A DNA stretch of 64,000 bases from an uncultured candidatus Porisulfidus sp. (GCA_965215125.1 OZ244052.1:1920001-1984000), one strand, 5' to 3'. Counted from the first letter of the stretch, positions 37,370 through 53,481 are shown. Notes: generated by a model from the letters alone, not told the origin. Made by a program: numbers and translations.

Positions 37370-38047
37370 TTATCGGGTATGCACCACACGCGACACCAGC
37401 GTTCCGGTATAGATGGCATTCGCGGTTAACGCGCCGGCAATACCTATCTCGGATAAAATATTCAAGTCGTCTCGGTCTCGTATACCTCCGCCTGCATAAA
37501 TTTCTCCCCGATAGCGACTGCGCAACTGTTTTAAGCAAGCGATATCGGCACCGCTTCGGCTACCGATGCGATCTAGGCACAAAACGATAATGCGCGACGG
37601 CCAATAGCGGATCTGTGTTAAGACATTGTGTCCGATCAATTGCCCATTCTTAAAATCCAACGACAGAATGTAGCGTTCACCGACAAAGCGATCCAAGTCT
37701 TCGGTTAAGGTTTCGGTACCTATGACCTTGACTACCGATTGAGGCATTTCCAACGATCTAAACTGAGCATAGTTGCCGATCCCTGCATCCAGCCAAAACT
37801 CAATTTCGGGAAATTGTTTGCATAAATCGGAAATCAAATTATGATGATTGCCTTGTTTATTAATCACATCTAGATCCGCTAGATATATAATATCGGTGTC
37901 TAATAATTTTAATAGAGTTTGTATTACTTTCACGGCAGAAGCATGCGGAAAAAGTTCGCTATGCAACGGGCGATATTTTTGACGTATTCCGCCCTGTGCT
38001 TGAACTACTACACCTCCCATTAAATCTATTGCAGGTATTAGTTTCAT
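37370..38047 (-). CDS. HisA/HisF-related TIM-barrel protein (Orf17-type, H4MPT/methanofuran cluster)
   Basis: IPAIDLMGGVVVQAQGGIRQKYRP, IYLADLD, WLDAG, SLDFK, IYAGGGIR, plus cluster context. Confidence 0.85.
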   Translation of the reverse strand: MKLIPAIDLMGGVVVQAQGGIRQKYRPLHSELFPHASAVKVIQTLLKLLDTDIIYLADLDVINKQGNHHNLISDLCKQFPEIEFWLDAGIGNYAQFRSLEMPQSVVKVIGTETLTEDLDRFVGERYILSLDFKNGQLIGHNVLTQIRYWPSRIIVLCLDRIGSRSGADIACLKQLRSRYRGEIYAGGGIRDRDDLNILSEIGIAGALTANAIYTGTLVSRVVHTR

Positions 38048-38065
38048 CGTTGAAAATATAAGGTC

Positions 38066-39046
38066 ATGAGAGTAGTCATATTCGAGTATACCAGTAGCGG
38101 CATCTGTAAACCCGAGTCATTATATCCCGACCTAATCAAGGAGGCGGATTTAATGGTCAACGAGTTGGGGCAGCAGATGAGGGAAGCAGGCTGTGATTTA
38201 GTGCTATTTCGCAGTCCGTCTTTGCCGCCGCCGTTATTCGAAGCCGAGATTATATCGCTCGACGGGACCGATGATTGGCATGCTATCTTGGAAGACCAAC
38301 TTCACAGGGCGGATGCCTATATACCGCTTGCCCCGGAAAGCGATGCTTTGCTCGAGAATTTATGCCTCAAAGCGGAACAAACACACTGCACTTTATTGAA
38401 TACATCGGCGCATACGGTACGCGAGACCTCTAATAAACACTATACCTTGAAACGATTGGCAGCGCATCGCATTCCTTGCATAGGTTGCTACCCTATAGAC
38501 CAATGCACTTTCCCAATGTCCGAAGATTGGGTTATCAAGCCGAATAACGGCTTTGCTTGTGAGCATACTTTTTTGATACGTTCCGGCGATATGCCGACAT
38601 CGGCACAAAAGCAGCATGCACAAATATGTCAACCTTATTTGCAAGGCACAAATGCCAGTTTGAGCATAATCTATGCAGCCGATTCCAAACCGTGTATCTT
38701 GGGTGTCAACCGCCAAGAAATCACCGTAGGAGAGCAGGATTGTTTTCAATTGATTACTTGTCATGTCAATGCGCTTGCACATCTGGAACTGGATTTTGAA
38801 GGTCTAGCTGCCGATGTGCAGAAATGTTTTACCGGCTTGCTCGGCTATGTGGGTATTGATATTATCATTCATGACGACACATCCTATGTATTAGAGATTA
38901 ACCCGCGCCTGACGACTTCTTTTGCCGGTCTTGCAAAGACCACCGGTGTCAATCCATGTGCGATGCTACTGGCAGCTGTTTGTGGTGAACCACTGCCGTG
39001 TCCTAAGCGAAGCGAGTTCACCGACTATAAGGTCGGTATAACTTAA
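38066..39046 (+). CDS. ATP-grasp ligase (tyramine-glutamate ligase MfnD/Orf1-like)
   Basis: IFEY N-terminus, PLAPES, VIKPNNGFACE, GYVGID, LEINPRLTTSFAGL. Confidence 0.82.
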   Translation: MRVVIFEYTSSGICKPESLYPDLIKEADLMVNELGQQMREAGCDLVLFRSPSLPPPLFEAEIISLDGTDDWHAILEDQLHRADAYIPLAPESDALLENLCLKAEQTHCTLLNTSAHTVRETSNKHYTLKRLAAHRIPCIGCYPIDQCTFPMSEDWVIKPNNGFACEHTFLIRSGDMPTSAQKQHAQICQPYLQGTNASLSIIYAADSKPCILGVNRQEITVGEQDCFQLITCHVNALAHLELDFEGLAADVQKCFTGLLGYVGIDIIIHDDTSYVLEINPRLTTSFAGLAKTTGVNPCAMLLAAVCGEPLPCPKRSEFTDYKVGIT

Positions 39047-40120
39047 ATGACTAAAGCCGGTATATGCGCCGAGCCACAGAATTATATAGGGTGGGATATA
39101 GGGGGGGCGCACTTGAAGGTGGCGCAGTTATCATCTGATACTCATGTAAAGGCAGTAATACAAATCGCATGCCCTTTGTGGCAAGGTATCGATGAATTGG
39201 AACGAGCATACCGAAAGGCATGCAAAGAGATATCCATTTCAAGTAGTATCACCGACCCTATCCACATTGTTACGATGACCGGTGAACTAGCCGATAGTTT
39301 CAGCGATAGGAAGCAGGGCGTATATCGCATCTTAGATACCATGTATCGTTTATTAGGGCAACCTTATAAGGTCTATGCAAGTGATAAAGGCATATTGAAT
39401 CATGACGACGTATCCGATGTAGAATCGGTTGCATCCCGAAACTGGCAAGCGACTGCCGAATGGCTTGCGATGAATTGTGAAGAAGGCATATTGGTGGATA
39501 TGGGTAGCACCACAACCGATTTAGTGCCCTTTAAGCACGGATTTATAGAGGTTCAAGGATATGACGATGCGATGCGGATGCAACACGGAGAATTAATTTA
39601 TACCGGCATCAGTAGAACACCGGTCATGGCAATTTCGGATCATTTCAATATAGATAGCGTTAATTATCCGATTATAGCAGAAAATTTTGCGACAATCGCA
39701 GATGTTTACCGAATTTTAGGGCAATTATCGGAAGATGATGACTTATATCCTACCTGCGACCATAATGCTAAAACAGTCTCGGCAAGTGCGAGGCGCTTGG
39801 AGAGAATGTTTGGTATTGATTGGGCAGGGGATCTGGATACGACACGTGCTAAAGCTCGGGCGATTGCCGAGGCACAGCAGCAAAAAATTAGCCATGCGCT
39901 CGATACTTTGATAAGGAGAGCCGAATTATCCGACGGTGCTTATGTTATCGGTGCGGGTTCGGGATATAAGATAGTACAATGTATCGCCGAGCGTCTAGGA
40001 CTAAGTTTTATGCCGTATCATCGTTTGTTAACCAATTTGCCTAAACATTTAGAAGATGTCGTATGCCGTTGTGCGAGTGCCGTGAGTGTTGCAGGTCTGG
40101 CGCACCGAAAGCACCTATAA
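39047..40120 (+). CDS. Hydantoinase/oxoprolinase-family H4MPT-linked C1 protein (Orf9/MfnF-like)
   Basis: GWDIGGAHLK, CPLWQG, TMTGELAD, VASRNW, DMGSTTTD, ELIYTG, ENFATIADVYR. Confidence 0.87.
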   Translation: MTKAGICAEPQNYIGWDIGGAHLKVAQLSSDTHVKAVIQIACPLWQGIDELERAYRKACKEISISSSITDPIHIVTMTGELADSFSDRKQGVYRILDTMYRLLGQPYKVYASDKGILNHDDVSDVESVASRNWQATAEWLAMNCEEGILVDMGSTTTDLVPFKHGFIEVQGYDDAMRMQHGELIYTGISRTPVMAISDHFNIDSVNYPIIAENFATIADVYRILGQLSEDDDLYPTCDHNAKTVSASARRLERMFGIDWAGDLDTTRAKARAIAEAQQQKISHALDTLIRRAELSDGAYVIGAGSGYKIVQCIAERLGLSFMPYHRLLTNLPKHLEDVVCRCASAVSVAGLAHRKHL

Positions 40121-40124
40121 AGAT

Positions 40125-41507
40125 ATGACTAAGTTATGGATCAAGGATTTGGCTTATGCGAGCGACAGCGCAAAGCTATTCGATTGTTTGAGGGGACAGC
40201 CGGGTGCGGTATTTTTGGATAGTGGAAGTCGTCGTCGGGATGCGCGCTACGATATTCTGACGGCGTGCCCTTCGCGCCTGATTCGCAGCAAAGACGGCAT
40301 CACGACCGTGGAATATGCCGATGGACGCTCTCAAAGCTATACCGAAGATCCCTTTGAGGTCGTGCGCATACAACTCGCTTTTGATGAAATAGAAAACGAT
40401 AACGAACTGCCTTTTCATGGTGGTGCGATCGGTTATTTCGGATACGATTTGGGTCGTCGCATAGAAAAGTTGCCGCACTATGCAAGCGATTCCGACGGTC
40501 TGCCGGAGCTAATGCTCGGGATATACGATTGGGCGGTTGTCAACGACCATCTACGCAAGCGAACTTGCCTGGTCGCATATCCGAGTGATCAATTCGGCAT
40601 AAAAGATTTTAGTCGATGGGAGGATTTGTTAAATCAAGCACCGCGCCCTGCGCAAAAATTCGTTTGCAAACAGTTAGGTGTGTTGCAATCTAATATGGAT
40701 CGTGCGACTTACATCAAGTGTTTCAATGCGGTAAAAGAGCATATTTATCAGGGCAACTGCTACCAAATCAATCTGGCACAGAGATTTGCCGTGTCAATGG
40801 AGTGCGATGCTTGGCAGCTGTATTGCCGTTTGCGCTCGATCAATTCCGCCCCGTACTCGGCGTATTTAGATTTCGGGCAATTTCAGGTTTTGAGCATTTC
40901 TCCGGAACGCTTTTTACATTTGCACGAAGGTTATGTTGAGACCAGTCCTATCAAAGGCACCCGCCCGCGGCATCGCGACCCCGACCAAGATAATAAGCAG
41001 GTCGAAGCGTTGTCCAACAGTGCTAAAGATCAAGCCGAGAACCTGATGATCGTCGATTTACTACGCAACGATTTCGGCAAAAGTTGTCGTCCGGGTTCTA
41101 TCACTGCCAAACACTTATTTAATATCGAGAGTTTCGACAATGTGCACCATCTAGTCAGTACGGTCTGCGGAAAGCTTGATAAAAACAAAGATGCTTTGCA
41201 TTTGTTGAAGGACTGTTTTCCCGGTGGTTCTATCACCGGCGCACCCAAGTTACGGGCGATGGAAATTATAGAAGAATTAGAACCGCATCGGCGCGGTGTG
41301 TATTGCGGTTCTATAGGATACTTGAGCCATAATGGCGATATGATGCTCAATATCGCGATCCGCACTGCGATATATCAAAATCGGCAATTCGTGTTTTACG
41401 GCGGCGGTGGCATTGTCGCAGACTCCGATGCCGATTTGGAATATCAGGAGACGATGGACAAGGTGTCGTCTATGACCGACTTGTTAAAAGAAGCCGCAAA
41501 CGAATGA
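40125..41507 (+). CDS. pabB: Aminodeoxychorismate synthase component I
   Basis: FLDSG, PFHGGAIGYFGYDLG, YQINLAQRF, SISPERFL, PIKGTRPR, AENLMIVDLLRND, FPGGSITGAPK. Start placed at ATG 40125, just after the upstream stop at 40120. Confidence 0.9.
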   Translation: MTKLWIKDLAYASDSAKLFDCLRGQPGAVFLDSGSRRRDARYDILTACPSRLIRSKDGITTVEYADGRSQSYTEDPFEVVRIQLAFDEIENDNELPFHGGAIGYFGYDLGRRIEKLPHYASDSDGLPELMLGIYDWAVVNDHLRKRTCLVAYPSDQFGIKDFSRWEDLLNQAPRPAQKFVCKQLGVLQSNMDRATYIKCFNAVKEHIYQGNCYQINLAQRFAVSMECDAWQLYCRLRSINSAPYSAYLDFGQFQVLSISPERFLHLHEGYVETSPIKGTRPRHRDPDQDNKQVEALSNSAKDQAENLMIVDLLRNDFGKSCRPGSITAKHLFNIESFDNVHHLVSTVCGKLDKNKDALHLLKDCFPGGSITGAPKLRAMEIIEELEPHRRGVYCGSIGYLSHNGDMMLNIAIRTAIYQNRQFVFYGGGGIVADSDADLEYQETMDKVSSMTDLLKEAANE

Positions 41508-42076
41508 AATGGGTGTTGAAGATCGGCGGCAGCTTGTATCGGCATACCGAGTTGGCAGATGTGCTGGCACAAGCAAAACATCTCTCCCGCGCCTCGGCAA
41601 GATGTACGATCGTACCGGGCGGCGGTCCGTTCGCCGACCAAGTTCGGGTAGCCGATAAACAGTGGCACTTAGACGAGCAAACCGCACATCGAATGGCAAT
41701 ATTGGGAATGCGTCAATACGGCAGATTATTGGCAAGCCTATCACGATTGTCGGTATATTATTCGGATGAACAAAGTAGCGAGCGGTGCGCAATATGGTTG
41801 CCGATAGACCACCCGACACCGACATGTTTGGCTAAAATTCCGCGTCAGCAACTGGATTGGGATTTTACCTCGGACTCAATCGCAATTTGCATGGCGGATT
41901 ATATCGGTGCCGAATATCTGGTTTTGGTAAAAGCAATTTCCGTAGACCAAGCGGGCTCTATCGCAAATTTGGTAGACAAACGTTTCGTCGGTTTGATGCA
42001 AGATAGATCTATGAAAGTTATTTGCCTATCGGTTGAAGAGTGGCTACAAAAGAATACCGCAACATTGTTCTCCTAA
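41504..42076 (+). CDS. Amino-acid-kinase-family protein (Orf21/MfnE-like)
   Basis: VLKIGGSL, IVPGGGPFADQVR, AHRMAILGM, WDFTSDSIA. ATGA overlap with pabB. Confidence 0.85.
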   Translation: MKWVLKIGGSLYRHTELADVLAQAKHLSRASARCTIVPGGGPFADQVRVADKQWHLDEQTAHRMAILGMRQYGRLLASLSRLSVYYSDEQSSERCAIWLPIDHPTPTCLAKIPRQQLDWDFTSDSIAICMADYIGAEYLVLVKAISVDQAGSIANLVDKRFVGLMQDRSMKVICLSVEEWLQKNTATLFS

Positions 42077-42247
42077 AAACTTATATATTTATTTCTCTGA
42101 ATGGACGGCATATTGGGTCTACGAAGCTGCTCGTCGGATATCTTAGGCTATTCGTCGGGTTTAGAATCGATGCCATCCGAGAATCGCTAGTATATTCCTT
42201 GGTTTGCCTTAAGGCATTAATTTACATATAATCCATAGGAGAATAAA

Positions 42248-42553
42248 ATGAATGGAACAACCAATCAAAGTACGGAAATTTTCGATACGATGCACAAATT
42301 AGAACGAGCAGGCATGTCAAGAACACAGGCAGAGATAACGGCGCGCGCAATTGACCGGCAAGTATCACTGTCGATGCAGGAAGTGCTGGATAAAATAGAC
42401 GCGCGTTTTGACGCTCACGAAATCCGTTACGAAGCGCGTTTTCAAGCTATAGAAAAAAGATTGTCGTGGCTCTATATAGAAAGCATTGTAGCTCTATGTG
42501 TCATTGGTGCCGGCTTTTCCGGTGTCATTATTGCTTTACTGCATATGGCCTAA
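42248..42553 (+). CDS. Small DUF1640/CCDC90-like coiled-coil protein with C-terminal membrane anchor
   Basis: FDT...L..AG....QAE head motif, heptad-like IDARFDAHEIRYEARFQAIEKRL, hydrophobic tail, RBS AGGAG. Confidence 0.65.
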   Translation: MNGTTNQSTEIFDTMHKLERAGMSRTQAEITARAIDRQVSLSMQEVLDKIDARFDAHEIRYEARFQAIEKRLSWLYIESIVALCVIGAGFSGVIIALLHMA

Positions 42554-42590
42554 ACGATAATCCAAAGCCCCTGCAATAATTAGCCGGATT

Positions 42591-43268
42591 CTATTGTCGT
42601 AGTTGAGCGGTAATTTTTTGTATCATTGCGGCGGATAAAATGCCTTGTCTTTGATGGTTTTCACACAATGCGGTTCTAAAGCCCAGATAATCGGGTGTCA
42701 TTGTAAGCAAAGGCTTGATGTCTTGGTATTTTAAGGAACCTGCGATGCCGCAAAGCAAACCGTTGCTTTGCGCGGTTTTCACAAAACTACTTAACTCGGA
42801 GTCGCTTTTGATAGTTCGTACCGAACCGTTCTTTTTATTTGCCGTATCTACCATGATTCCGCTGAAACCCGCCGACTTTAATAGATGACAGGGTCCCGAT
42901 AAATCGTTAAAGTATTCGGCGAATAAAACTCCGACTAAATTAACATTTGTAGCGACTGTTTTGAGCGCGGGCAAACATTTCAAAAGCCAATCACCGCCGA
43001 ACATTCCGACTTTGACATAATTTACTCCGAGCTTTGCGATTGCCTGCGTTTTTTTCAATACGACTTCGGGATCGGCAGGCAAATCACCTATGGTTGCGCT
43101 ACTGATACATGTCCCTGAAACGAGATCCATGATTTTACCGATAGTATGTTCGTCCAATGCCCCTAAGGCACCCTGTGCAGGGTTTTTCATATCAAGTATT
43201 CCCACCGAGGCCTGTAGTGCGATGCGTGCTTCTTCCACACTGGAAATGCTCGCTAATAATTTCGTCAT
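42591..43268 (-). CDS. mfnB: (5-formylfuran-3-yl)methyl phosphate synthase (Orf22/DUF556)
   Basis: LLASISSVEEA, DMKNPAQGALGA, SATIGD, YVKVG, MVDTANK, GIAGSL, PDYLGFRTALC. ATG at 43268 forms an ATGA overlap with the upstream gene. Confidence 0.87.
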   Translation of the reverse strand: MTKLLASISSVEEARIALQASVGILDMKNPAQGALGALDEHTIGKIMDLVSGTCISSATIGDLPADPEVVLKKTQAIAKLGVNYVKVGMFGGDWLLKCLPALKTVATNVNLVGVLFAEYFNDLSGPCHLLKSAGFSGIMVDTANKKNGSVRTIKSDSELSSFVKTAQSNGLLCGIAGSLKYQDIKPLLTMTPDYLGFRTALCENHQRQGILSAAMIQKITAQLRQ

Positions 43269-43837
43269 AGTATCTCCGATATTTCGGGAAATTTTTTCTG
43301 CACGCGTTCCATCAACCACGACCACGCTTCGAGTTCCTCGGAGCCGGCGGTTTTATCTATGGCAATTTTCAGATAAGCGATCTCGGTGAGAATTTTCTCG
43401 GGTGCTAATCGCTCTAGGCGGCTGACGAGTATCGCCAATTCTATAACCGCAGCTTGCGCTCGGTTAAAGCCGTTGAAAGGTGCGTGCGTTGCCTCGTGCA
43501 ATATCTCGGTGTATAGCTTCGGTCTGAGTGCATCCTCTTCGGTTTTGACGACTTTGACTTCAATGTGACTCAACGCCGCCTCTAGTCGCTTGGCTTTTAC
43601 ATGTTTACTTTCTGTCAGAGACCATTCTCTGTGACCGCTTAGACAACCTGCAAATACTCTGACATCGTCTATACGGTTGATTACCGCATATGGTATGCGC
43701 TTGAGATTATCCAAAGTGGTAGACGGTTTGAAAGGAGCTAGTATCGTAAAGGAATCGCTCACCCACATACCCATCGGAGCAAGATATGTGCTACCGTCTT
43801 CGTTGCAAGTAGAGACGATTGTTTCAAGTATCTTCAT
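43265..43837 (-). CDS. DUF447-family protein (Orf19-type)
   Basis: ETIVST, APMG, PFKPSTTLDNL, DDVRVFAG, GFNRAQAAVIELAILVSRL, LKIAIDKTAG. Confidence 0.85.
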   Translation of the reverse strand: MKILETIVSTCNEDGSTYLAPMGMWVSDSFTILAPFKPSTTLDNLKRIPYAVINRIDDVRVFAGCLSGHREWSLTESKHVKAKRLEAALSHIEVKVVKTEEDALRPKLYTEILHEATHAPFNGFNRAQAAVIELAILVSRLERLAPEKILTEIAYLKIAIDKTAGSEELEAWSWLMERVQKKFPEISEIL

Positions 43838-45272
43838 TCTTTGTATTTCGTTTTTTTCTGTTTTTTATTTTTTCGCGTCGTTCCTTTAAGGTTACGCCGC
43901 CTTCCTTGAAAGTAGTGAGGTCTTCTTCTTTAGGTTCTACGGCACATCCCCAAAGCAATTCTTCGTCCTGATTGTAACGCTTTCCTAGCTGCCATGCAAT
44001 CTGCGCTCGCCCTAATTCCACTCCCAAGTAAAAGGCGTGTCCGCCGTCGTCCGAGACACCCAGCTCGGTATAAAAATCAAAAGGATCGGTTGCAACTTTA
44101 TAGAGATCGCAGTTATATATATGTATACCCTCTTCGTTGAGCTGTATTCTGAAATTTTTATCTTTGATAGACTCGGCAATGGTTTTAATCTCCTCCGTAC
44201 TGTAAGGAAAAGGGTGTCGTTCGTGCAATGCCATCAAACCACTTGCGATATTCGCAGGCGTGGAGCTGTGGCGACGCGCTGCATACATAATGCGCCTTGC
44301 CAAATCGGCTTCTCGTATCGCACAGCGGCAGTGTTCGCTAACTTGGGTGGTCAATAAGTATCTAATGTCAAGTTCCGATACGATTCCCAATAGCAATGCA
44401 TTGATGCCCGAGGTGTCGGCGTGTGTTAGTTCGGTTAGATTGCCGATTCCCATCATTATTTCTATATGCGGATGATCGTGGCGCAAGCGGTGGTAGCGTG
44501 CCACAGAATCGCTAAATCCGTAATGTATGGGATCTAGAATAGGGTCGGCGATAAATGCTCTATTTTTTTTCTCCAGTCTTTCTATGCAGTTATAAAGTGT
44601 TTCTATCTGTTGCGGTGTGTCCGGGATCACGATAGGTATCGCCTCGCTTTCGTCGGCGACCCATAGCGTGTTTTGTTTTAGGCTGAGCAGATAATCTGCG
44701 CCGTACTGTGATGCCTGTAACAGCTGTTCGGTGTTATGCGTATCTACGCTGACCTTGAAACGATGTTCTTTGAGCAAACTAATCGTATCTTTGAGTTGCG
44801 GAAAAGGTGTTTCCGGCATAAACCCTATATCTATCACATCGGCACCGTCGGCTCTGTAACGTTGCGCAATATTCAGAGTCTCTTCCGGCGACTGCTCGGC
44901 AGCTTCGACTATCTCACCGAAGATCAACACATCCGAGTCTTCCAAATCGTAATGATGTGTTTTACCGAAGAGTGATGGAATGTCCTTGAGTTCGTCGGGC
45001 CCGCGTTCAAACGGAATACGGAAATGAGAGTAAAGTTCGTCTAAGTCACCGCGAAAAAGACCCGGTAAAATAATTCTGTCAAATTGATCTATGTCTTTTA
45101 ATCTTCGTTTGATGATATTCGTGGTCATCATAGAAGCGACGCTTAAACCTAAATTACGGACATCGTATGTAAATGCGTCGCTTTGCATGTCCTCTAAGAT
45201 ACGAACCAACCCCGAATAAGCGAGTTTACCGGTTAGAAATAGGATATGCTCTTTGTTTTTAATATCAGTCAT
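43824..45272 (-). CDS. Dihydropteroate synthase-related pterin-binding protein (Orf20-type)
   Basis: ILFLTGKLA, RGPDELKDIP, GADVIDIG, DPILDPIHYGF, MGIGNLTELTHAD, HAFYLGVELGRAQIAWQLGKRYNQDE. Confidence 0.88.
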   Translation of the reverse strand: MTDIKNKEHILFLTGKLAYSGLVRILEDMQSDAFTYDVRNLGLSVASMMTTNIIKRRLKDIDQFDRIILPGLFRGDLDELYSHFRIPFERGPDELKDIPSLFGKTHHYDLEDSDVLIFGEIVEAAEQSPEETLNIAQRYRADGADVIDIGFMPETPFPQLKDTISLLKEHRFKVSVDTHNTEQLLQASQYGADYLLSLKQNTLWVADESEAIPIVIPDTPQQIETLYNCIERLEKKNRAFIADPILDPIHYGFSDSVARYHRLRHDHPHIEIMMGIGNLTELTHADTSGINALLLGIVSELDIRYLLTTQVSEHCRCAIREADLARRIMYAARRHSSTPANIASGLMALHERHPFPYSTEEIKTIAESIKDKNFRIQLNEEGIHIYNCDLYKVATDPFDFYTELGVSDDGGHAFYLGVELGRAQIAWQLGKRYNQDEELLWGCAVEPKEEDLTTFKEGGVTLKERREKIKNRKKRNTKNEDT

Positions 45273-45297
45273 AATAAACTTGAGTTATCGGATAATT

Positions 45298-45326
45298 TTG
45301 GAATATTTTGAGGGTGTATATATAAT
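45298..45326 (+). promoter_or_regulatory. Putative sigma70 promoter of the sulfotransferase array (TTGGAA-N17-TATAAT)
   Basis: TTGGAA at 45298-45303, 17-bp spacer, perfect TATAAT at 45321-45326, in the divergent intergenic region. The AT-rich context lowers specificity. Confidence 0.45.
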
Positions 45327-45388
45327 AGCTAATTCTCGAGTTAGATACTTAAAAAACACACATTTTAATACTTATTTTATCAATATCC

Positions 45389-46312
45389 ATGATGCGTGAC
45401 ACTGAATCACCTTATTATAGAACGCCCGTACCCGACAAAAGCTATTTTGACAAACTCAACACGATGGTGTTGGTATCTACTTTTCCTCGCTCCGGTTCGA
45501 CATTACTCGGCTATTTACTAACCGCCCATTGCAATATGGTGGTAGCTAGCGAACCGAACAACTACAAAGAAAATCTATATAGTGAAGTGCCCCCGATGGC
45601 ATTAATAAATTATATTTTATATGTAGACAAAATGAGGTTTGAAGAAGCGGAAAATGCTCGTTCTACGGAAAAGCCACAGGAAACCTCTATATCCGATAAT
45701 ACTATAAAGAGGACTTATAACAAGCGAGAACGTTATATGTTTGTTCCTAATCAATGGCAGGCATGTTGCGAGTCGTTGCGCGTTATAGGAATTAAAAATT
45801 CATCGGTATTGGCGAGGCATCTATCGGAGGAAGATATATATGAAAAATTCAAGCTAAAACTTCATAAATTAGGAATTCATCGTTTGAAGTTTATTTTTAC
45901 AGTACGAAACCCTTACGATATGATCAGCACGGATATAGTGCATCGAGCCGGAAATCCGAAAATGGCTTCTTTCACCGAGGAGCAGAAACATAGCCTAATA
46001 ACTAAAAAAGTAAAAAATCAATTTGTAAAACGATGCGAAATAGCTAAAAAGATTTTTAAATTAACTAGAGATAAGGATATATTTATAAATAGGCACGAGG
46101 ATATGGTGGCTTCACCCATAGACCAGCTGAGCAAGCTATGCGATTTCCTGAAAGTGCCGGCATTTCCCGATTATCTTAATGATTGTGCGTCCGTGGTTCA
46201 TAAAAAATCCAACAAAAGCCGCCATGAACTGGATTGGTCGGGGCAACAAAAGGAAGAGGTAGCGAAACTGATAGATAAATATCACTTCCTTTCCGGCTAC
46301 AGCTGGGATTGA
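45389..46312 (+). CDS. Sulfotransferase family protein, array copy 1
   Basis: 5'-PSB-like FPRSGSTLL, 3'-PB-like FIFTVRNPYDMIST, RHEDMV...LCDFL. Confidence 0.85.
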   Translation: MMRDTESPYYRTPVPDKSYFDKLNTMVLVSTFPRSGSTLLGYLLTAHCNMVVASEPNNYKENLYSEVPPMALINYILYVDKMRFEEAENARSTEKPQETSISDNTIKRTYNKRERYMFVPNQWQACCESLRVIGIKNSSVLARHLSEEDIYEKFKLKLHKLGIHRLKFIFTVRNPYDMISTDIVHRAGNPKMASFTEEQKHSLITKKVKNQFVKRCEIAKKIFKLTRDKDIFINRHEDMVASPIDQLSKLCDFLKVPAFPDYLNDCASVVHKKSNKSRHELDWSGQQKEEVAKLIDKYHFLSGYSWD

Positions 46313-46632
46313 TAACAAACACTCAAAAGATTATTTATGTCCGACCGTATTGATTCACAAGATTATGAAATGCCTGCACTCGACACAGCGTATTTTAAGG
46401 ATATACGTATATTCGTATCAACGATAGGATTTCATAGAAGCGGTTCATCACTAGTCGGTTATTTACTGACCGCACATCGCAATATAATAATCGCTCATGA
46501 ACCTCGTATCAAAAATACGGATCTATACGAATTAACTGCAAAAGAATTATTTAATTGGATTATTGCAAAAGATAAAAATAGATTTAGAGCTGCAAAAGAA
46601 TTTATTGAAAATAGTCAAAAATCTTCATCACT

Positions 46633-47948
46633 GAGACTGTAATTTAAATTGTGTAAGTTCTAATTAAGATAAACTAGGTGGCAACACCAAACTAATAAAG
46701 GAGAACTTATGAAAGATATAAAAAGCATCGGGAAAGAATTATCCCGTCATGTAAAGACCCAACAAGAGATGACCGATATCATCGGTCAGTTGATTAAGTC
46801 AATGATGGAAGGCATACTCAATGCGGAGCTGGACGACCATCTCGGCTATGAGAAAAACGACAAAGCATCCAAGCGTAGAAAGAATACCCGCAACGGGCAT
46901 AGTGCCAAGACCTTAAAGACCAATTATGGGGATATAACGATACAGACACCGCGAGATCGGGAGGCGTCGTTTGAACCGATGATTGTGCCGAAAGGGAAAA
47001 CCCGTTTAGACGGATTTGAGGATACGATATTGGCACTCTATGCGCAAGGGATGACGGTGCGACAGATACAAGAGTCGATTAAAGAGTTGTATCATGGTGC
47101 GGAGATTTCTACTGCGGTTATCTCGAATGTCACCGATGCGGTGATAGACGAGGTGCGGACTTGGCAGAGCCGAGTGTTAGAGTGCCTCTATGTGGTGATG
47201 TATCTGGATTGCATCGTCGTCAAAGTGCGAGAGCAAGGCCGTATCATTAACAAGTCGATCTATGTTGCACTGGGCATAAAGCGCAGTGGACGCAAGGAAT
47301 TACTCGGGTTGTGGATTGCCGAGACCGAAAGTGCTAAGTTCTGGTTAGCGATATTAACCGAGCTACAAAATCGGGGTGTGAAAGATATCTTGATCTGTTG
47401 CATAGATGGTCTGAAGGGTTTCGCAGAGGCGATTGCCAGCGTCTATCCGCAGGCAAAAATACAACTGTGTCTAGTCCACATGATGAGAAACTCGCTACGC
47501 TATGTTGCGACTAAAGATAAGAAAGCAGTCTCGGCAGCGTTAAAGAAGATATACAATAGTCCTACGGCGCAGGCTGCCGAGCAGGCGTTAGATGAGTTTG
47601 CCGATTGCTGGTCGGCAAAATATCCGAGTGTTGAGCGGTCGTGGCGCAATAACTGGGACAACCTGATTACGTTATTTGATTACCCGCCGGAGATTAGAAA
47701 AATTATCTATACAACGAATGCGATAGAAAGTCTCAATAGCGTGATTAGAAAATCCATCCGCAACCGGAAGATATTCCCGAGCGACCAATCGGCATTGAAA
47801 GTAGTTTATTTGGCAATCAAAAAAGCCTCTGCTCGCTGGACGCTGCCGATACGAAATTGGATACCGGCGATGAACCGATTAGCTATTGAATACGAAGGTA
47901 GATTTGATATTGAGGAAAACGAAGTTACACAAAATAGTTAACAGGCTC
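46633..47948 (+). mobile_element. IS256-family insertion sequence, 1316 bp
   Basis: 28-bp imperfect terminal IRs (46633-46660 gagactgtaatttaaattgtgtaagttc; 47921-47948; 21/28 match). 8-bp target duplication tcatcact at 46625-46632 and 47949-47956. Confidence 0.95.
46709..47941 (+). CDS. IS256-family (Mutator-like DDE) transposase
   Basis: ELDDHLGYEK, RNGH, PRDREASFEP, YLDCIVVKVR, DGLKGF, QLCLVH, IYTTNAIESLN. Intact 410 aa, RBS AAGGAG. Confidence 0.96.
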   Translation: MKDIKSIGKELSRHVKTQQEMTDIIGQLIKSMMEGILNAELDDHLGYEKNDKASKRRKNTRNGHSAKTLKTNYGDITIQTPRDREASFEPMIVPKGKTRLDGFEDTILALYAQGMTVRQIQESIKELYHGAEISTAVISNVTDAVIDEVRTWQSRVLECLYVVMYLDCIVVKVREQGRIINKSIYVALGIKRSGRKELLGLWIAETESAKFWLAILTELQNRGVKDILICCIDGLKGFAEAIASVYPQAKIQLCLVHMMRNSLRYVATKDKKAVSAALKKIYNSPTAQAAEQALDEFADCWSAKYPSVERSWRNNWDNLITLFDYPPEIRKIIYTTNAIESLNSVIRKSIRNRKIFPSDQSALKVVYLAIKKASARWTLPIRNWIPAMNRLAIEYEGRFDIEENEVTQNS

Positions 47949-48596
47949 TCATCACTAAATAAAAGTGAGTCCAAATCAGGGTATGGTGCAAAAAGCAAAT
48001 ATGTGATGGTTCCTAATCAATGGCAAACCCGCTGTGAGTCTTTGCAGGTGATCGGGGTTAAGCGTTCTGCATATATGAACTGCGTCTCAAACATAGACAT
48101 ACTAGAGACTTTTAGGGAAAATCTTAGCGAGGAATCAGTTAGTTGCTTAAAGTTCATTTTTACTGTGCGTAATCCTTACGATATGATTAATACCAGTATG
48201 AGATATAAGGCTAAAAAAGGCAAGATAAAAACGGCAACACAAGTTGATATAGGGAAAATACTGCATAAAAGAATAAAAAATTTCGCGGAAGTATGTAAAA
48301 AGATAGAGGTTATTTTTGCGTTAATTAAAGCCGAGGATATATTTATAAATAGGCATGAGGATATGGTGGCTTCACCCGTAGACCAGCTGAGCAAGCTATG
48401 CGATTTCCTGAAAGTGCCGGCATTTCCCGATTATCTTAATGATTGTGCGTCCGTGGTTGATAAAAAAGCCAACAAAAGCCGTTATGAACTGGATTGGTCG
48501 GAGCAACAAAAGGAAGAGGTAGCGGAACTGATAGATAAATATCACTTCCTTTCCGGCTACAGCTGGGATTCATAACAAACACTTATAGGATTATTT

Positions 48597-49517
48597 ATGT
48601 CCGATCGTACTTCTCCCTCGAGATTAAAAATGTCTGCACACGATACGACACCCTTTGAGAATGTACATACATTTGTATCAACGATAGGCTTTAATAGAAG
48701 CGGTTCATCCCTAGTCGGTTCTTTACTCACCGCACATCGCAATATGATAGTTGCCCATGAGCCTCGTCAAAGGAGACCTATATCTATATTCAAAATTGAT
48801 CCTTTGGTGTTATTTTATTTCCTTCTTGTAAGAGATACGGAGAGAAATAGAACCATAAAAAAATGTATTGAAAATAGCGAAAAATCTTTATCACTAAATA
48901 AAAGCGAGTTCAAAACAAGGTATTATACAAGAAACAAATATATGATAGTTCCCAATCAGTGGCAAGCCCGCTATGAGTCTTTGCAAGTTATAGGAATTAA
49001 AGATTCTCCATGCATACAAAAGCAATTATTAAAAGCAGGCATGTTAAAAACTTTTAGGGAAAATCTTAAAAAGGAATCGGTTAGTTGCTTAAAGTTTATT
49101 TTCATGGTTCGCAACCCTTACGATTTAATTAGTAGTGATACAATTCATTACGCTCAGACGAATTATCTTAGAAAGTTAACACAAGATAATATGAATAAGA
49201 GCCTGTGTAATCTGATGAGGAAGTTCCATAGAAAATGCAGAATAGTGAAGTATCCTTTTACGGTGATTAAAGCCGAGGATATATTTATAAATAGGCATGA
49301 GGATATGGTGGCTTCACCCGTAGACCAGCTGAGTAAGCTATGCGATTTTCTGGGCGTACCGGCACTTCCCGATTATCTTAATGATTGTGCGTCCGTGGTT
49401 GATAAAAAAGCCAACAAAAGCCGTTATGAACTGGATTGGTCGGAGCAACAAAAGGAAGAGGTAGCGAAGCTCATAGATAAATATCACTTCCTTTCCGGCT
49501 ACAGCTGGGATTCATAA
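48597..49517 (+). CDS. Sulfotransferase family protein, array copy 3
   Basis: GFNRSGSSLV, VPNQWQ, VRNPYDLISS. Confidence 0.85.
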   Translation: MSDRTSPSRLKMSAHDTTPFENVHTFVSTIGFNRSGSSLVGSLLTAHRNMIVAHEPRQRRPISIFKIDPLVLFYFLLVRDTERNRTIKKCIENSEKSLSLNKSEFKTRYYTRNKYMIVPNQWQARYESLQVIGIKDSPCIQKQLLKAGMLKTFRENLKKESVSCLKFIFMVRNPYDLISSDTIHYAQTNYLRKLTQDNMNKSLCNLMRKFHRKCRIVKYPFTVIKAEDIFINRHEDMVASPVDQLSKLCDFLGVPALPDYLNDCASVVDKKANKSRYELDWSEQQKEEVAKLIDKYHFLSGYSWDS

Positions 49518-49538
49518 CAAACACTTATAGGATTATTT

Positions 49539-50459
49539 ATGCCCGACCGTACTCTTCCCCGAGATTATAAAACACCTGCATCCGACGCAGCGTATTTTAG
49601 GGATGTACATACATTCGTATCAACAATAGGCTTTCATAGAAGCGGTTCATCCCTAGTCGGTTATTTACTGACCGCACACCGCAATATGATAATTGCCCAC
49701 GAGCTTCATGACAAATATAAAAATCTATACGAAGTCGATCCAAAAGAGTTATTTAATTATATTTTTCTAAGGGATAGAAATAAATTTAGAATAGCAAAAG
49801 AATTTATTGAAAACACCGAAAAATCTTCGTCATTAAATAAAAGTGAGTCCAAATCAAGGTACGGTGCGGGAAACAAATATGTGATAGTTCCTAATCAATG
49901 GCAAGCTCGCTGTGAATCTTTACAGGTGATAGGAGTGAAATGTTCCTCATACTCAACTAATCACCTATCAAAAATAAATATATTAAAGACTTTTAGGGAA
50001 AATCTTAAGAAGAAATCGATTAATCGCTTAAAGTTTATTTTCACGGTGCGCAACCCTTACGATATGATTACCACCAATGTAGCATATTGGGCTAATAATA
50101 AGAGAATTAGAACGGTGACACAGAACGATGTAAATATGGTATTGGACTATAATGTGAAAGTACGCCTCCCTGAAATATGTAAAGGGGCAGAGAGTCTTTT
50201 TACGGTGATTAAAACCGAGGATATATTCATAAATAGACACGAAGATATGGTGGCTTCACCGGTAGGCCAGCTGAGCAAGCTATGCGATTTCCTAAAAGTA
50301 CCGGCGTTTCCCGATTATCTTAATGATTGTGCGTCCGTGGTTGATAAAAAAGCCAACAAAAGCCGTTATGAAGTGGATTGGTCGGAGCAACAAAAGGAAG
50401 AGGTGGCGGAACTGATAGATAAATATCACTTCCTTTCCGGCTACAGCTGGGATTCATAA
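49539..50459 (+). CDS. Sulfotransferase family protein, array copy 4
   Basis: GFHRSGSSLV, VPNQWQ, VRNPYDMITT. Confidence 0.85.
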   Translation: MPDRTLPRDYKTPASDAAYFRDVHTFVSTIGFHRSGSSLVGYLLTAHRNMIIAHELHDKYKNLYEVDPKELFNYIFLRDRNKFRIAKEFIENTEKSSSLNKSESKSRYGAGNKYVIVPNQWQARCESLQVIGVKCSSYSTNHLSKINILKTFRENLKKKSINRLKFIFTVRNPYDMITTNVAYWANNKRIRTVTQNDVNMVLDYNVKVRLPEICKGAESLFTVIKTEDIFINRHEDMVASPVGQLSKLCDFLKVPAFPDYLNDCASVVDKKANKSRYEVDWSEQQKEEVAELIDKYHFLSGYSWDS

Positions 50460-50480
50460 CAAATACTTACAGGATTATTT

Positions 50481-51428
50481 ATGCCCGATCGTACTCTTCC
50501 ACAAGATTATGAAATACCTGCACCCGACGCAGCGTATTTTGACGATATACATACGATGACACTGGTATCGTATTTTCCCAGATCCGGTTCATCGCTACTC
50601 GGTTATTTACTTACCGCACATCCCAATATGGTTATAGCTAATGAGCCTGCCCGACCGGATGAGACATTATATGACAAAGTTCCTTTTATAGTTTTACTGA
50701 ATTATATTTTATATATAGATAAAATGAGATTTGAGGGTGCGAGAAAAATTCGGGATCCACAGACTTTTGAGGAGGCCTCGGACTCGAATAATTCGGTAAA
50801 AAGAACTTATAATCAGCAAGAACGTTATATATCTGTTCCTAATCAATGGCAGGCCCGTTGCGAGTCGTTGAAAGTAATAGGTATTAAAAACTCATTACCG
50901 TTGGCAGAGAGTTTATTAGCGGAGGGGATGTTAGAAAAGCTAAAAGAGAATCTCAAACAAGCAAATATTCGTCGCTTGAGGTTTATTTTCACGGTGCGTA
51001 ATCCTTATGATATGATTGCCACCGATGTAGTCTATTGGGCAGGTAATAGAAGGCTTAGAGTGGTAACACAGGATGATGTGAATAAGATGCTAGATTATAA
51101 AATAAAGATATCGTTTCCTATTATGTGCAAGCAAGGGAAAAAACTACTGGAGCTAATGCAACCGACGAATATGCTAAGCAAAAATACGGATATACTGATA
51201 AATAGGCACGAAGATTTAGTCGCTTCTCCCGCTAAACAACTAACCAAGCTATGCAAATTCCTAAAAGTGTCTTATCCCCGCGATTATTTGGAAGATTGTG
51301 CTTCGGTAATTCGCAAAAAAACTAATAAAAGCCGTCATGAACTGCACTGGTCGGACGAGCAAAAGGAAGAAGTAAGAAAAATAATTAACGAATACGATTT
51401 CTTCTCGGGCTACAACTGGGATATATAA
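50481..51428 (+). CDS. Sulfotransferase family protein, array copy 5
   Basis: YFPRSGSSLL, VPNQWQ, VRNPYDMIAT. The 3' end is diverged from copies 1-4. Confidence 0.85.
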   Translation: MPDRTLPQDYEIPAPDAAYFDDIHTMTLVSYFPRSGSSLLGYLLTAHPNMVIANEPARPDETLYDKVPFIVLLNYILYIDKMRFEGARKIRDPQTFEEASDSNNSVKRTYNQQERYISVPNQWQARCESLKVIGIKNSLPLAESLLAEGMLEKLKENLKQANIRRLRFIFTVRNPYDMIATDVVYWAGNRRLRVVTQDDVNKMLDYKIKISFPIMCKQGKKLLELMQPTNMLSKNTDILINRHEDLVASPAKQLTKLCKFLKVSYPRDYLEDCASVIRKKTNKSRHELHWSDEQKEEVRKIINEYDFFSGYNWDI

Positions 51429-51456
51429 ACAAAGTGTATGAGGGATACAAACGCTT

Positions 51457-53481
51457 GTGCTTCAAAAAATGTTTAAGCTGAAAAGTAGCTATACACCTTC
51501 GGGTGATCAACCACAGGCCATAAAAGAATTGACCCGAGGTCTGAGAGACAACTTATCGCATTTGACGCTGCTGGGTGTGACGGGTTCGGGCAAAACCTTT
51601 ACGATTGCAAATGTCGTAGAACAAGTACAACGCCCGACGATAGTATTGGCCCCTAATAAGACTTTGGCAGCACAGCTTTACGGTGAACTAAAGGATTTTT
51701 TCCCTGATGCTGCAGTAGAATATTTTGTTTCGTATTACGATTACTATCAACCCGAGGCTTATGTGCCGAGTAGCGACACCTATATAGAAAAAGATGCATC
51801 GGTGAACGATCATATAGAGCAGATGCGGCTATCGGCAACCAAGGCTTTGTTTGAACGCGCCGACACCGTAATCGTAGGCACGGTATCGGCAATTTACGGC
51901 TTGGGTGATCCTAAAAAATACCTGCATATGGTTATCCATTTAGATAGAGGCGATGCGATTACCCAACGCAAAATCCTAAAACGCTTAGCCGAACTGCAAT
52001 ATACACGAAACGATATAGAACTCAGACGCGGTTGTTTCAGGGTGCGCGGTGATGTAATCGACGTGCACCCCGCAGAATCCGAGCGAGAAGCGGTTCGCAT
52101 AGAGTTATTCGACGACGAAATAGAAAAGTTAAGCTACTTTGATCCTTTGACCGGCGAAGTTTTGGGTAGTGTGCCGCGTTTGACGATTTATCCCAAGTCG
52201 CACTATGTGACACCTAGGCAAACGATACTCGATGCGATAGAGCAAATTAAAGTAGAACTTCGCACGCAACTTGATTTATTGACTCGCTCCAACAAGCTCG
52301 TAGAGGCTCAACGTTTGGAACAACGTACGATTTACGATATAGAAATGATGTACGAGCTCGGCTATTGCTCGGGTATAGAGAATTATTCGCGTTATTTGAG
52401 TGGTCGCGGTGCCGGACAGCCACCGCCTTGCTTGCTCGATTATTTGCCCGAAAATGCGTTGATGGTAATGGACGAGAGTCATGTTTCCATACCACAGTTT
52501 ATGGGAATGTACAGAGGCGATCATTCGCGTAAAAAAAATCTGGTTGAGTACGGTTTCAGGTTGCCTTCGGCACTCGACAATCGCCCGTTAAAGTTCGAGG
52601 AATTCGAAGCACTTGCCCCGCAGATGATACTGGTTTCGGCAACCCCTGCGCAATACGAAAAAGAGCATAGCGGTATCGTTGCCGAGCAGGTTGTACGACC
52701 TACCGGATTGATAGATCCTCAAACCGATGTCCGACCGGTTACTTCGCAGGTAGACGATGTGTTATCCGAAATTAATAAACGAGTGGCGCGCGACGAACGC
52801 GTATTGATTACCACCTTAACGAAGCGGATGGCAGAAGACTTGACCGACTATTTGAGTGAACACGATGTGCGGGTGCGCTATCTACATTCGGATGTAGATA
52901 CCGTTGAACGCGTGGAGATTATCCGCGATCTCAGGCTGGGCATATTCGATGTATTGGTAGGTATCAATCTATTGCGTGAAGGTTTGGATATTCCGGAGGT
53001 TTCTCTGGTTGCAATACTCGACGCAGATAAAGAAGGTTATTTACGTTCCGAGACTTCTTTGGTGCAGACTATCGGGCGTGCCGCTCGCCATATCAACGGG
53101 ACGGCAATACTCTATGCCGATAAAATCACCCGTTCGATGAAAGCGGCTTTGGTAGAGACCAAGCGTCGCCGAGACAAGCAACGAGAATTTAATAAACGCC
53201 ACGGTATTTCTCCGCAAGGCATACATAAGAAAGTTACCGATGTCATGGAAGGCGCACATCTAAAGCAAGTCGGCAATAAGAAACGTCGTCGAGTTGCTGA
53301 AATAAAAATAGCCGATTACGATACGCTGACACCCGATGAAGCGGTTAAAAAAATCAAAAAGCTGGAAGAGCAAATGTACGCATGTTCGAGAAATCTAGAA
53401 TTTGAAGAAGCTGCACGTCTGCGCGATCAAGCCGCTCTGGTTAAAACGCAAGTATTCGGTGCTACAGAAAAGCAATATTGA
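51457..53481 (+). CDS. uvrB: Excinuclease ABC subunit B
   Basis: [52 protein letters not shown]-terminal [11 protein letters not shown]. Alternative start at ATG 51469. Confidence 0.97.

Follow-up and report, generated by a model that had tools for sequence, protein, structure and literature searches.

Described systems that can be compared with the locus analysed here comprise individual sulfotransferases as well as families of repeated genes. The locus is a tandem array of five sulfotransferase genes at positions 45389-51428 of a stretch of 64,000 nucleotides (the window) from an uncultured candidatus Porisulfidus sp. (GCA_965215125.1 OZ244052.1:1920001-1984000), which is part of a 2.22-Mb genome assembled as one contig. 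NodH of Sinorhizobium meliloti, like the array enzymes, belongs to the Pfam family PF13469, adopts the same fold and possesses a 5'-phosphosulfate loop of the R-x-G type, which reads PRSGS in the array; the recognition of NodH by PF13469 is attributed to its RXG motif in a review (PMC11625862). Unlike NodH, which is encoded by a single gene within a pathway cluster, the present family is represented in one genus by 11-17 matches in each genome of 1.6-2.9 Mb, and the array enzymes have no detectable close sequence relation to any characterized PF13469 member. The closest solved sequences are the sulfotransferase domains of CurM and of the olefin synthase OLS (4gbm and 4gox; E values 1.4e-8 and 5e-4, 19-22% identity, structural Z scores 13.9 and 13.7). 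These are domains of polyketide and olefin synthases that sulfate beta-hydroxyacyl groups on the acyl carrier protein (ACP), and they share with the array enzymes the PRSGS loop, the R(H/N)PY motif and a C-terminal YEDLV..P..L..LC.FL.VP region. In contrast to them, the array proteins stand alone, and no polyketide synthase (PKS) genes were found nearby by Pfam searches of the flanking open reading frames (ORFs). The tyrosylprotein sulfotransferases TPST1/2 are the best structural matches of a copy 4 model (root-mean-square deviation 3.1-3.5 over 213-221 residues), but they share only 13-15% identity with the array enzymes and score about one Z unit above carbohydrate sulfotransferases. A bacterial tyrosylprotein sulfotransferase is known in RaxST. 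For the array, no gene for a peptide substrate was found.

With regard to repeated genes, concerted evolution by gene conversion together with birth-and-death turnover is known for tandem bacterial paralogues. The array resembles this pattern in its segment-wise discordant trees, in a drop of synonymous divergence (dS) within a tract that includes the spacer, and in its variable copy number; it differs from the general case in that the tract covers only the gene junctions of two among four gene types, so that the enzymes retain distinct middle parts. Cassette-based variation systems are represented by Neisseria pilE/pilS, Borrelia vlsE, shufflons and diversity-generating retroelements. The array resembles them superficially in being made of repeated units with a mosaic of constant and variable segments, but it contains neither silent partial cassettes nor a single expression site, it lacks a dedicated recombinase or reverse transcriptase, and its variable segments are stable across species. 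Based on these sequence comparisons, we conclude that the evolution of the array is an instance of the known birth-and-death and concerted evolution of tandem paralogues and not of a programmed diversity generator. Accounting for the locus as a whole, we consider it probable that this tandem array, predicted to depend on 3'-phosphoadenosine 5'-phosphosulfate (PAPS), represents a lineage-specific sulfotransferase expansion shaped by duplication, loss and junction-centred gene conversion. In the open-access literature (listings and abstracts), no paper was found that describes the sulfotransferase expansion of this genus; Candidatus Porisulfidus serves as an outgroup to SUP05 in one paper and is called a known sponge symbiont in another.

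Variable parts and gene junctions of the array

ORF calling and Pfam searches assigned the array to one family of five plus-strand ORFs arranged head-to-tail. This agrees with an earlier note made from the sequence alone, with the amendment that copy 2 is split by an insertion sequence (IS), so that four copies are intact. The intact copies (c1, c3, c4 and c5) are full-length ORFs, each with its own ATG and a short purine-rich stretch upstream; the intergenic gaps across the array measure 21-28 bp and the spacers from copy to copy 21-24 bp. The starts of copies 3, 4 and 5 (48597, 49539 and 50481) follow each other in exact steps of 942 bp, as the note had stated, and a 300-nt repeat family recurs through the array at spacings of 2260, 942, 942 and 969 bp. 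The higher AT content that had been noticed is also apparent, the G+C content of the array being 0.37-0.40 as compared to 0.46-0.49 in the flanks.

For comparison within the genus, the window genome (G000) was set beside four congeneric genomes (G001, G002, G003 and G004). The codon alignment was split into a variable part (columns 6-270) and a constant block (the last 80 codons), and trees were calculated for 17 genes of four multi-copy arrays. In the tree of the variable part, the genes fall into four clades, A, B, C and D, each with 99-100% support. Type A is always first and type D always last in the multi-copy arrays, an order kept in four species. Type B occupies the middle, with three copies in the window genome (c2, c3 and c4), two in G004 and one each in G001 and G003, while type C occurs only in G001 and G004 and is missing from the window genome. 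Genes of the same type are 79-92% identical in DNA across species, as opposed to 50-63% between types, with the exception of C and D (73-76%). Between the window genome and its nearest relative, G003, the dS of the variable part is 0.42 for type A, 0.19 for c4 and the B gene, and 0.30 for type D; since these values match those of the flanking genes (uvrB, DUF6513 and DUF447; 0.29-0.35), the types have been inherited vertically with the species. The variable part was also compared in windows of 25 codons, one of which was filled by a gap and gave no score. In all scored windows, c1, c4 and c5 are closest to the same-type gene of G003, and c2 and c3 are nearly always closest to another B gene, the exceptions being two c3 windows of low identity (0.61-0.67). 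No exchange between types was seen in the scored windows.

The ratio of nonsynonymous to synonymous substitution (omega) of the variable part is 0.17-0.42 between orthologues and up to 0.64 between B paralogues, compared to 0.04-0.17 in the flanks, and in sliding windows it is never clearly above 1 (maximum 1.01, in one type-A window). These codon comparisons indicate that the variable parts are under purifying selection. The less constrained stretches coincide with long helices and a low-confidence loop of the copy 4 model (residues 68-110, 136-160 and 181-225). Divergence along the genes is strongly non-uniform, in agreement with the earlier note; the term 'hypervariable', which the note had used for the divergent segments, is overstated, as these segments are conserved between orthologues of different species.

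The 3' ends of the genes behave differently. A stretch of 266 nt from copy 2 is present with 96.2, 95.5 and 95.1% identity in copies 3, 1 and 4, respectively, but with 73% in copy 5 and with 66-71% in five paralogues dispersed over the genome. The shared block covers about 240 bp before the stop codon, the spacer and the beginning of the following coding sequence (its first codons), so that the near-identical block of 3' end and spacer that had been described for copies 1-4 is recovered at a length of about 270 bp and an identity of 95-96%. In the tree of the constant block, A and B genes are intermixed and cluster according to genome or lineage, whereas C and D remain apart. Approximately unbiased (AU) tests of the constant block reject the monophyly of type A (p 0.0017) and of type B (p 0.0012), and for the variable part they reject a c1-c4 clade (p 0.0007); the groups were named after the alignment had been seen, and the p-values are descriptive. 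For c1 (type A) and c2 (type B), the dS of the constant block is only 0.044, as opposed to a saturated value (about 2) upstream. Among c1-c4 the block dS is 0.12-0.32, while the A-versus-B pairs are saturated outside the block, and between the A and B genes of G001, G003 and G004 it is 0.64-0.68, below the upstream value. As 0.044 is well under the species-level value of about 0.3, conversion between c1 and c2 post-dates the split from G003, and as the A-B values of the other three genomes are lowered but not recent, conversion is episodic. Omega of the constant part is 0.05-0.36 for orthologues between species and for most paralogue pairs; in the converted tract of c1 and c2 it is 0.85, based on very few changes. 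The first approximately 20 codons of genes other than the first of an array also cluster by genome and not by type, as exemplified by c5 and c4 (0.85-0.89) and by an N-terminal extension of 5 codons common to three genes of G004. Since identity continues from the gene end across the spacer into the start of the following gene, the homogenized unit is the gene junction. Thus, synonymous sites, trees and spacer together indicate that the constant block is a gene-conversion tract between types A and B, which supports the earlier suggestion that these blocks are homogenized.

Contigs of four coded sequencing runs were compared with the window over positions 44800-52000. The unique parts of c1, c3, c4 and c5 are present at 100% identity in runs from two studies, which argues that the array sequence is not an accident of assembly. 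All contigs break at the constant blocks, and the order and number of the copies are not confirmed by them; they cross the IS junctions by 29-30 letters, below the 31-letter rule applied. One patch of population variation was identified in c5 (positions 50920-50996, codons 147-172), where 14 substitutions within 77 bp lead to six amino-acid changes. The patch is the major form in run X5 and a minor contig in run X4, on an otherwise nearly identical background, and it matches the type-D gene of G003 at 10 of the 14 sites, as opposed to 4-5 sites for the paralogues of the same genome. This single patch therefore looks like an allelic exchange between lineages and not like a donation by a neighbouring copy. 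Three further candidates were discarded. Two joints, 45529 to 50024 (side 26), at which the copies are not in register, and 46444 to 47949 (side 21), were dismissed as repeat artefacts; a cluster of 11 differences (49380-49491), present in a single X4 contig of low depth, lies in a constant block and is most simply the block of another copy at 90% likeness.

Enzyme family and predicted fold

The intact copies match Sulfotransfer_3 (PF13469; E values 7e-11 to 1.5e-12, 40.8-48.7 bits, cut-off 27) as well as Sulfotransfer_1 (PF00685; 32.4-36.5 bits, cut-off 22). The 3' piece of copy 2 still exceeds both cut-offs (31.5 and 26.4 bits), and its 101-aa 5' fragment falls below. The three anchors listed in the earlier note, RSGS..LLTAH, VPNQWQ and VRNPYD, are found in every copy of the window, and the motif GTTCCYAATCARTGGCA occurs five times against none expected from 100 shuffles. 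Across 17 array genes of five genomes, the columns S-G-S, A-H, V-P-N-Q-W-Q, R-N-P-Y-D, H-E-D and S-R are invariant. This includes S35, G36 and S37 of the 5'-phosphosulfate loop, which align with PRSGST of the CurM sulfotransferase; the preceding arginine is kept in the five window copies and replaced by glycine in three array genes of other genomes. The residues of the 3'-phosphate motif (R171, N172, P173, Y174 and D175), which align with VRHPYSVIES of CurM, are invariant in an alignment of 56 sequences, and the motif core remains so down to 31% identity. When the family profile is searched against solved structures, the CurM domain 4gbm is the closest sequence, the alignment covering the PRSGS loop, the R-x-P-Y motif and the C-terminal 'EDLV..P...L..LC.FL.VP' region.

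Structural modelling of copy 4 with AlphaFold2 yielded a model with a predicted local distance difference test score of 88 and a predicted template modelling score of 0.87. All 50 structures listed as matches are sulfotransferases (Z 11.8-15.7), led by human and tick tyrosylprotein sulfotransferases (15.2-15.7; TPST1 15.7) and followed by heparan-sulfate 3-O-sulfotransferases (13.7-14.5; HS 3-OST-1 14.5), Stf9 (14.1) and the CurM domain; these values lie too close together to name the class of acceptor. Profile, motifs and modelled fold place the array genes in the PF13469/PF00685 superfamily of PAPS sulfotransferases, with catalysis being predicted, and the PAPS-binding motifs RSGS and RNPYD, which the note had recognized in all copies, agree with this placement. 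By sequence, the array enzymes fall into no characterized sulfotransferase subfamily. NCBIfam holds no family model for them, the ESM Atlas returned generic sulfotransferase clusters only, and a tblastn search of a plasmid collection with copy 4, directed at the synechan sulfotransferases that cyanobacteria encode on a megaplasmid, gave no match at an E value of 1e-3. Viral contigs yielded just four relatives with 25-29% identity, and no phage vector is evident from these; a role in defence was dropped, PADLOC having returned only a 16.8-bit BrxA stretch on c4. Direct reading of the N-termini shows no hydrophobic leader, and the enzymes are therefore most likely cytoplasmic. With regard to the supply of PAPS, for which the note had suggested looking for cysDNC, a fused ATP-sulfurylase and adenosine 5'-phosphosulfate (APS) kinase is encoded elsewhere in the genome in one open frame of 567 aa, as are two inositol-monophosphatase/CysQ-type proteins, members of a universal family.

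Distribution, surroundings and the insertion sequence in copy 2

When 40 relatives were searched, the family was present in each of the four genomes of the same genus, with 11-17 matches per genome, and weakly (E value about 1e-17) in three of four genomes of one other genus; it was not found in the remaining 32 genomes. In five of five congeneric genomes the array is flanked by the DUF6513/pterin-type gene and uvrB, and it comprises one copy in G002, three in G003, four in G001 and five each in G004 and the window genome. Two of the four other genomes with the array are single-contig assemblies, and a third is assembled in three contigs, with the array on one of 2.49 Mb. A genome collection yielded 77 loci of the family, among which arrays of at least three copies are confined to this genus; the 67 loci outside it are single-copy in 63 cases and two-copy in four. 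Several peculiarities were observed in the array of G004 (L023:5671-8566), where three consecutive genes overlap the preceding stop codon by 4 bp and carry a 5-codon N-terminal extension, MINTS. The type-C gene of this genome has an insertion of 24 residues that repeats the adjacent sequence.

The window genome has five other paralogue loci (G000:C1, positions 619849, 1241038, 1260237, 1796521 and 2100534), which are insertions of low G+C content (0.35-0.37, genome 0.46), single or paired, between housekeeping genes. The paralogues at 2100534-2101392 and 1241038-1241817 look split or frameshifted in the search output, and relaxed Pfam scans of six unannotated neighbours of these loci gave nothing credible. 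A second array of the family (G000:C1:1796518-1798444) occupies a fixed site between lepB, encoding signal peptidase, and an acetolactate-synthase-like gene. It consists of two copies in the window genome, five in G001, three in G003 and two in G004, and its gene ends are more alike than the middles, more mildly so than in the main array. Next to the dispersed paralogue at 619849, three adjoining ORFs of 349-379 aa without Pfam match (G000:C1:615811-619801; L107:2963-6953) separate it from sugar-modifying genes, namely those for a DegT-type aminotransferase and a GFO/IDH/MocA oxidoreductase; two of the three are near-duplicates as judged from an identical pattern of weak matches.

The positions of all features are given in the table. 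The element that splits copy 2, overlooked in the earlier note, interrupts codon 99 and belongs to the IS256 family, as documented by its transposase, by terminal inverted repeats (imperfect, 21/31), by an 8-bp target duplication (TCATCACT, at 46625-46632 and 47949-47956) and by its multiple copies. When the element and one copy of the duplication are removed by coordinates, copy 2 is an open frame of 304 codons. The genome contains five full-length copies that are 100% identical, the other four being located at G000:C1 665077-666392, 840504-841819, 1088728-1090043 and 1318964-1320279, and two partial ones; because of these identical full copies, the element is regarded as recently active and its insertion into copy 2 as recent. 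In three runs, the depth of the IS contig is approximately 7-fold that of the flanks, which fits the number of IS copies.

Table. Features of the sulfotransferase array and its immediate surroundings (window coordinates).
Feature	Position	Strand	Basis and remarks
Left anchor gene, DUF6513 with weak pterin-binding matches	43824..45272	-	Pfam; neighbour of the array in 5/5 genomes
Promoter-like site TTGGAA-17-TATAAT in the 116-bp gap 5' of copy 1; candidate operon promoter	45298..45326	+	10/12 matches; weak
Copy 1 (c1), type A sulfotransferase, 307 aa	45389..46312	+	ORF, Pfam, tree; orthologue is at position 1 in 3 other multi-copy arrays of the genus
Homogenized junction block 1: copy 1 3' ~240 bp, spacer, first codons of copy 2	46072..46350	+	Junction alignment
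Copy 2 (c2), type B, 5' piece up to the IS	46337..46632	+	ORF 46337-46642; 101-aa fragment, Sulfotransfer_3 E 0.0049
IS256-family insertion sequence, 1316 bp	46633..47948	+	Transposase ORF 46709-47941; NF033543 429 bits (cut-off 150)
Copy 2 (c2), type B, 3' piece after the IS	47957..48575	+	ORF 47886-48575
Homogenized junction block 2 (copy 2/copy 3)	48335..48613	+	Junction alignment
Copy 3 (c3), type B, 306 aa	48597..49517	+	ORF, Pfam, tree; most diverged B copy (end branch 0.4)
Homogenized junction block 3 (copy 3/copy 4)	49277..49555	+	Junction alignment
Copy 4 (c4), type B, 306 aa	49539..50459	+	ORF, Pfam, tree; variable part 91% nt identity to the sole B gene of sister genome G003
Homogenized junction block 4 (copy 4/copy 5)	50219..50497	+	Junction alignment
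Copy 5 (c5), type D, 315 aa	50481..51428	+	ORF, Pfam, tree; last, beside uvrB in 4 multi-copy arrays; 3' end not homogenized
Right anchor gene uvrB, 28 bp past copy 5	51457..53481	+	Pfam; neighbour of the array in 5/5 genomes

Upstream of the array, positions 37370-45272 harbour a biosynthesis cluster of the methanofuran/tetrahydromethanopterin type. Its members include a 4-(hydroxymethyl)-2-furancarboxaldehyde phosphate (4-HFC-P) synthase (MfnB-like), DUF447, DUF6513, ATP-grasp, hydantoinase-like, amino-acid-kinase-like and His-biosynthesis-like barrel proteins, and an aminobenzoate/anthranilate-synthase-like gene is located among them. Further upstream, positions 1-36000 (plus strand) are occupied by one frame of at least 11,974 aa that is already open at the first base of the window; this giant surface-protein gene, which runs off the window start, encodes GLUG motifs together with numerous cadherin-like beta-sandwich domains, of which 17 stretches fall into its last third. 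Scans of the window with Rfam and for tRNAs gave no matches.

History of the array and the acceptor question

The probable history of lineage-specific expansion may be outlined as follows. The array would be an old, genus-specific expansion that became fixed between the pterin-pathway gene and uvrB. It is probably one operon transcribed from a promoter 5' of copy 1, as suggested by the short gaps of 21-28 bp, by a scan that found no plus-strand terminator-like sites between the copies, and by the promoter-like site at 45298-45326. In the window genome, type B has multiplied to copies 2, 3 and 4. The divergent middle parts may represent long-standing differences on the acceptor side between the types, kept by purifying selection, and each type would probably sulfate a different acceptor or position. 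Neighbouring copies recombine, such that conversion at the junctions repeatedly overwrites types A and B with each other, and the junction blocks would be natural substrates for unequal crossing-over, by which whole genes could be gained or lost without the formation of chimeric enzymes; this would be the simplest account of the one to five copies among the species. Finally, one B copy was knocked out recently by the active IS256-family element.

Other accounts of the mosaic were weighed against this history. The earlier note had proposed a diversifying system in which the constant blocks act as recombination handles that shuffle specificity segments, so that sulfation would vary on a short time scale as in cassette-based antigenic variation. 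The mosaic of constant and divergent segments, the variable copy number among species and the c5 patch, which separates contigs of X5 and a minor X4 contig from the window, would fit such a system, but no sign of it was obtained: the four clades are stable across species, the nearest neighbours of the scored windows stay within type and reveal no mosaicism between types, omega is mostly below 1, and contigs from two studies carry the unique segments at 100% identity. Each copy is a complete gene with a start of its own, and the patch follows the same-type gene of the sister species more closely than the paralogues of its own genome. Furthermore, Pfam searches of the flanking ORFs (36205-63782) identified no recombinase, invertase, integrase or reverse transcriptase, the only such gene being the IS256 transposase inside copy 2. 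We therefore regard programmed diversification as highly improbable. An even smaller chance is given to the idea that strong purifying selection on cofactor binding, with no gene conversion, accounts for the likeness of the blocks. The block does align with the conserved YEDLV..P...L..LC.FL.VP region on the cofactor side of the CurM sulfotransferase, its omega is low (0.05-0.2), and the second array is also more identical at the 3' end; yet the c1-c2 dS falls far below the saturated upstream value and even below the species level, the non-coding spacer is alike too, the AU tests reject the type tree, and the block is only 66-73% identical in c5 and the dispersed paralogues, which carry the same motifs. 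As synonymous sites and spacer are alike and the likeness is absent from c5 and the dispersed copies, purifying selection, although it also acts on the block, is insufficient to explain it, and as the sole cause it is refuted by the synonymous-site and spacer data. Least likely of all is that collapse or mis-joining of repeats created the block or the copy number. No short-read contig of the four runs spans the array, but the block copies differ from each other, each unique segment recurs at 100% identity in contigs from three samples and two studies, and arrays of the same design occupy the same site in four other genomes; these data speak against the collapse that the note had named as a possible source of the shared block.

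For the lineage-specific expansion, the leading guess for the acceptor is a glycan, which we hold at roughly even odds, and from the surroundings of distant homologues we infer that a sugar of a surface glycan would be modified. Of the 67 loci outside the genus, 22 were examined as distant homologues (30-39% identical), with Pfam searches of about two adjacent ORFs to the left and right of every gene (85 of the 161 ORFs at the 22 loci). Six adjoin genes for a glycosyltransferase, a Wzx-type flippase or nucleotide-sugar metabolism, five adjoin further sulfotransferases, two adjoin PAPS-synthesis genes, and three cyanobacterial ones are located between an ABC ATPase and a methyltransferase. Alternatively, the same evolutionary history might have served the sulfation of peptides or proteins, such as tyrosines of giant secreted proteins, or of small metabolites or lipids. 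The tyrosylprotein sulfotransferases at the top of the structural matches, the acyl-ACP sulfotransferases CurM and OLS as the closest sequences and the giant cadherin-like/GLUG protein gene, which ends 9 kb upstream of the array, point in this direction. However, the carbohydrate sulfotransferases follow within about 1-2 Z units, so that the fold does not discriminate, and none of the distant loci examined lies beside PKS, nonribosomal peptide synthetase (NRPS) or ribosomally synthesized and post-translationally modified peptide (RiPP) genes, as opposed to the six beside glycan genes. We consider an acceptor of this kind rather unlikely, at perhaps half the weight given to a glycan.

Several observations weigh against the expansion as outlined and against its glycan acceptor. 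The operon is deduced from short gaps, the absence of terminators and one promoter-like match in a scan whose total does not exceed that of shuffled sequences (28 sites versus 21.3 +/- 4.9). Unequal crossing-over is deduced from copy number between species, and no structural variant was seen within the population. The omega of type B rises to 0.6-0.8 near residues 61-90 and 180-225 of c4, an average that may hide a few positively selected sites. With regard to the acceptor, nine of the 22 distant loci have no informative context, and the array as well as the five other paralogue loci sit between housekeeping genes; Pfam searches of the flanking ORFs found no genes for glycan biosynthesis or export beside the array. 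Glycan-related neighbours occur at two other loci of the genome only, namely 619849, with the DegT-type aminotransferase/oxidoreductase pair, and the second array, with a fragment of the UDP-glucose/GDP-mannose dehydrogenase type. In addition, the top structural matches are protein-tyrosine sulfotransferases, with carbohydrate enzymes following within about 1 Z unit, which leaves some probability to a peptide or protein acceptor.

Going one step further, it might be speculated that the arrays and the dispersed copies together write a species-specific sulfation pattern on the surface glycans of the symbiont, and that the junction blocks are kept alike since selection favours the easy gain and loss of whole enzyme genes. 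We consider this combined proposal, taken as one, to be doubtful. If true, the turnover of sulfation patterns between host-adapted lineages would be rapid and would not depend on dedicated machinery for switching.

Irrespective of the acceptor, the array illustrates a way in which a bacterial enzyme family may grow, with old paralogues keeping their substrate-side parts while recombination homogenizes the junctions and alters copy number. The wider interest is ecological, as the expansion is confined to one sponge-associated genus, and it is plausible that sulfated molecules on the surface of such bacteria serve in recognition with an animal host whose matrix is richly sulfated. Should the acceptors be found, the four types would constitute a ready-made panel of sulfotransferases of differing specificities.

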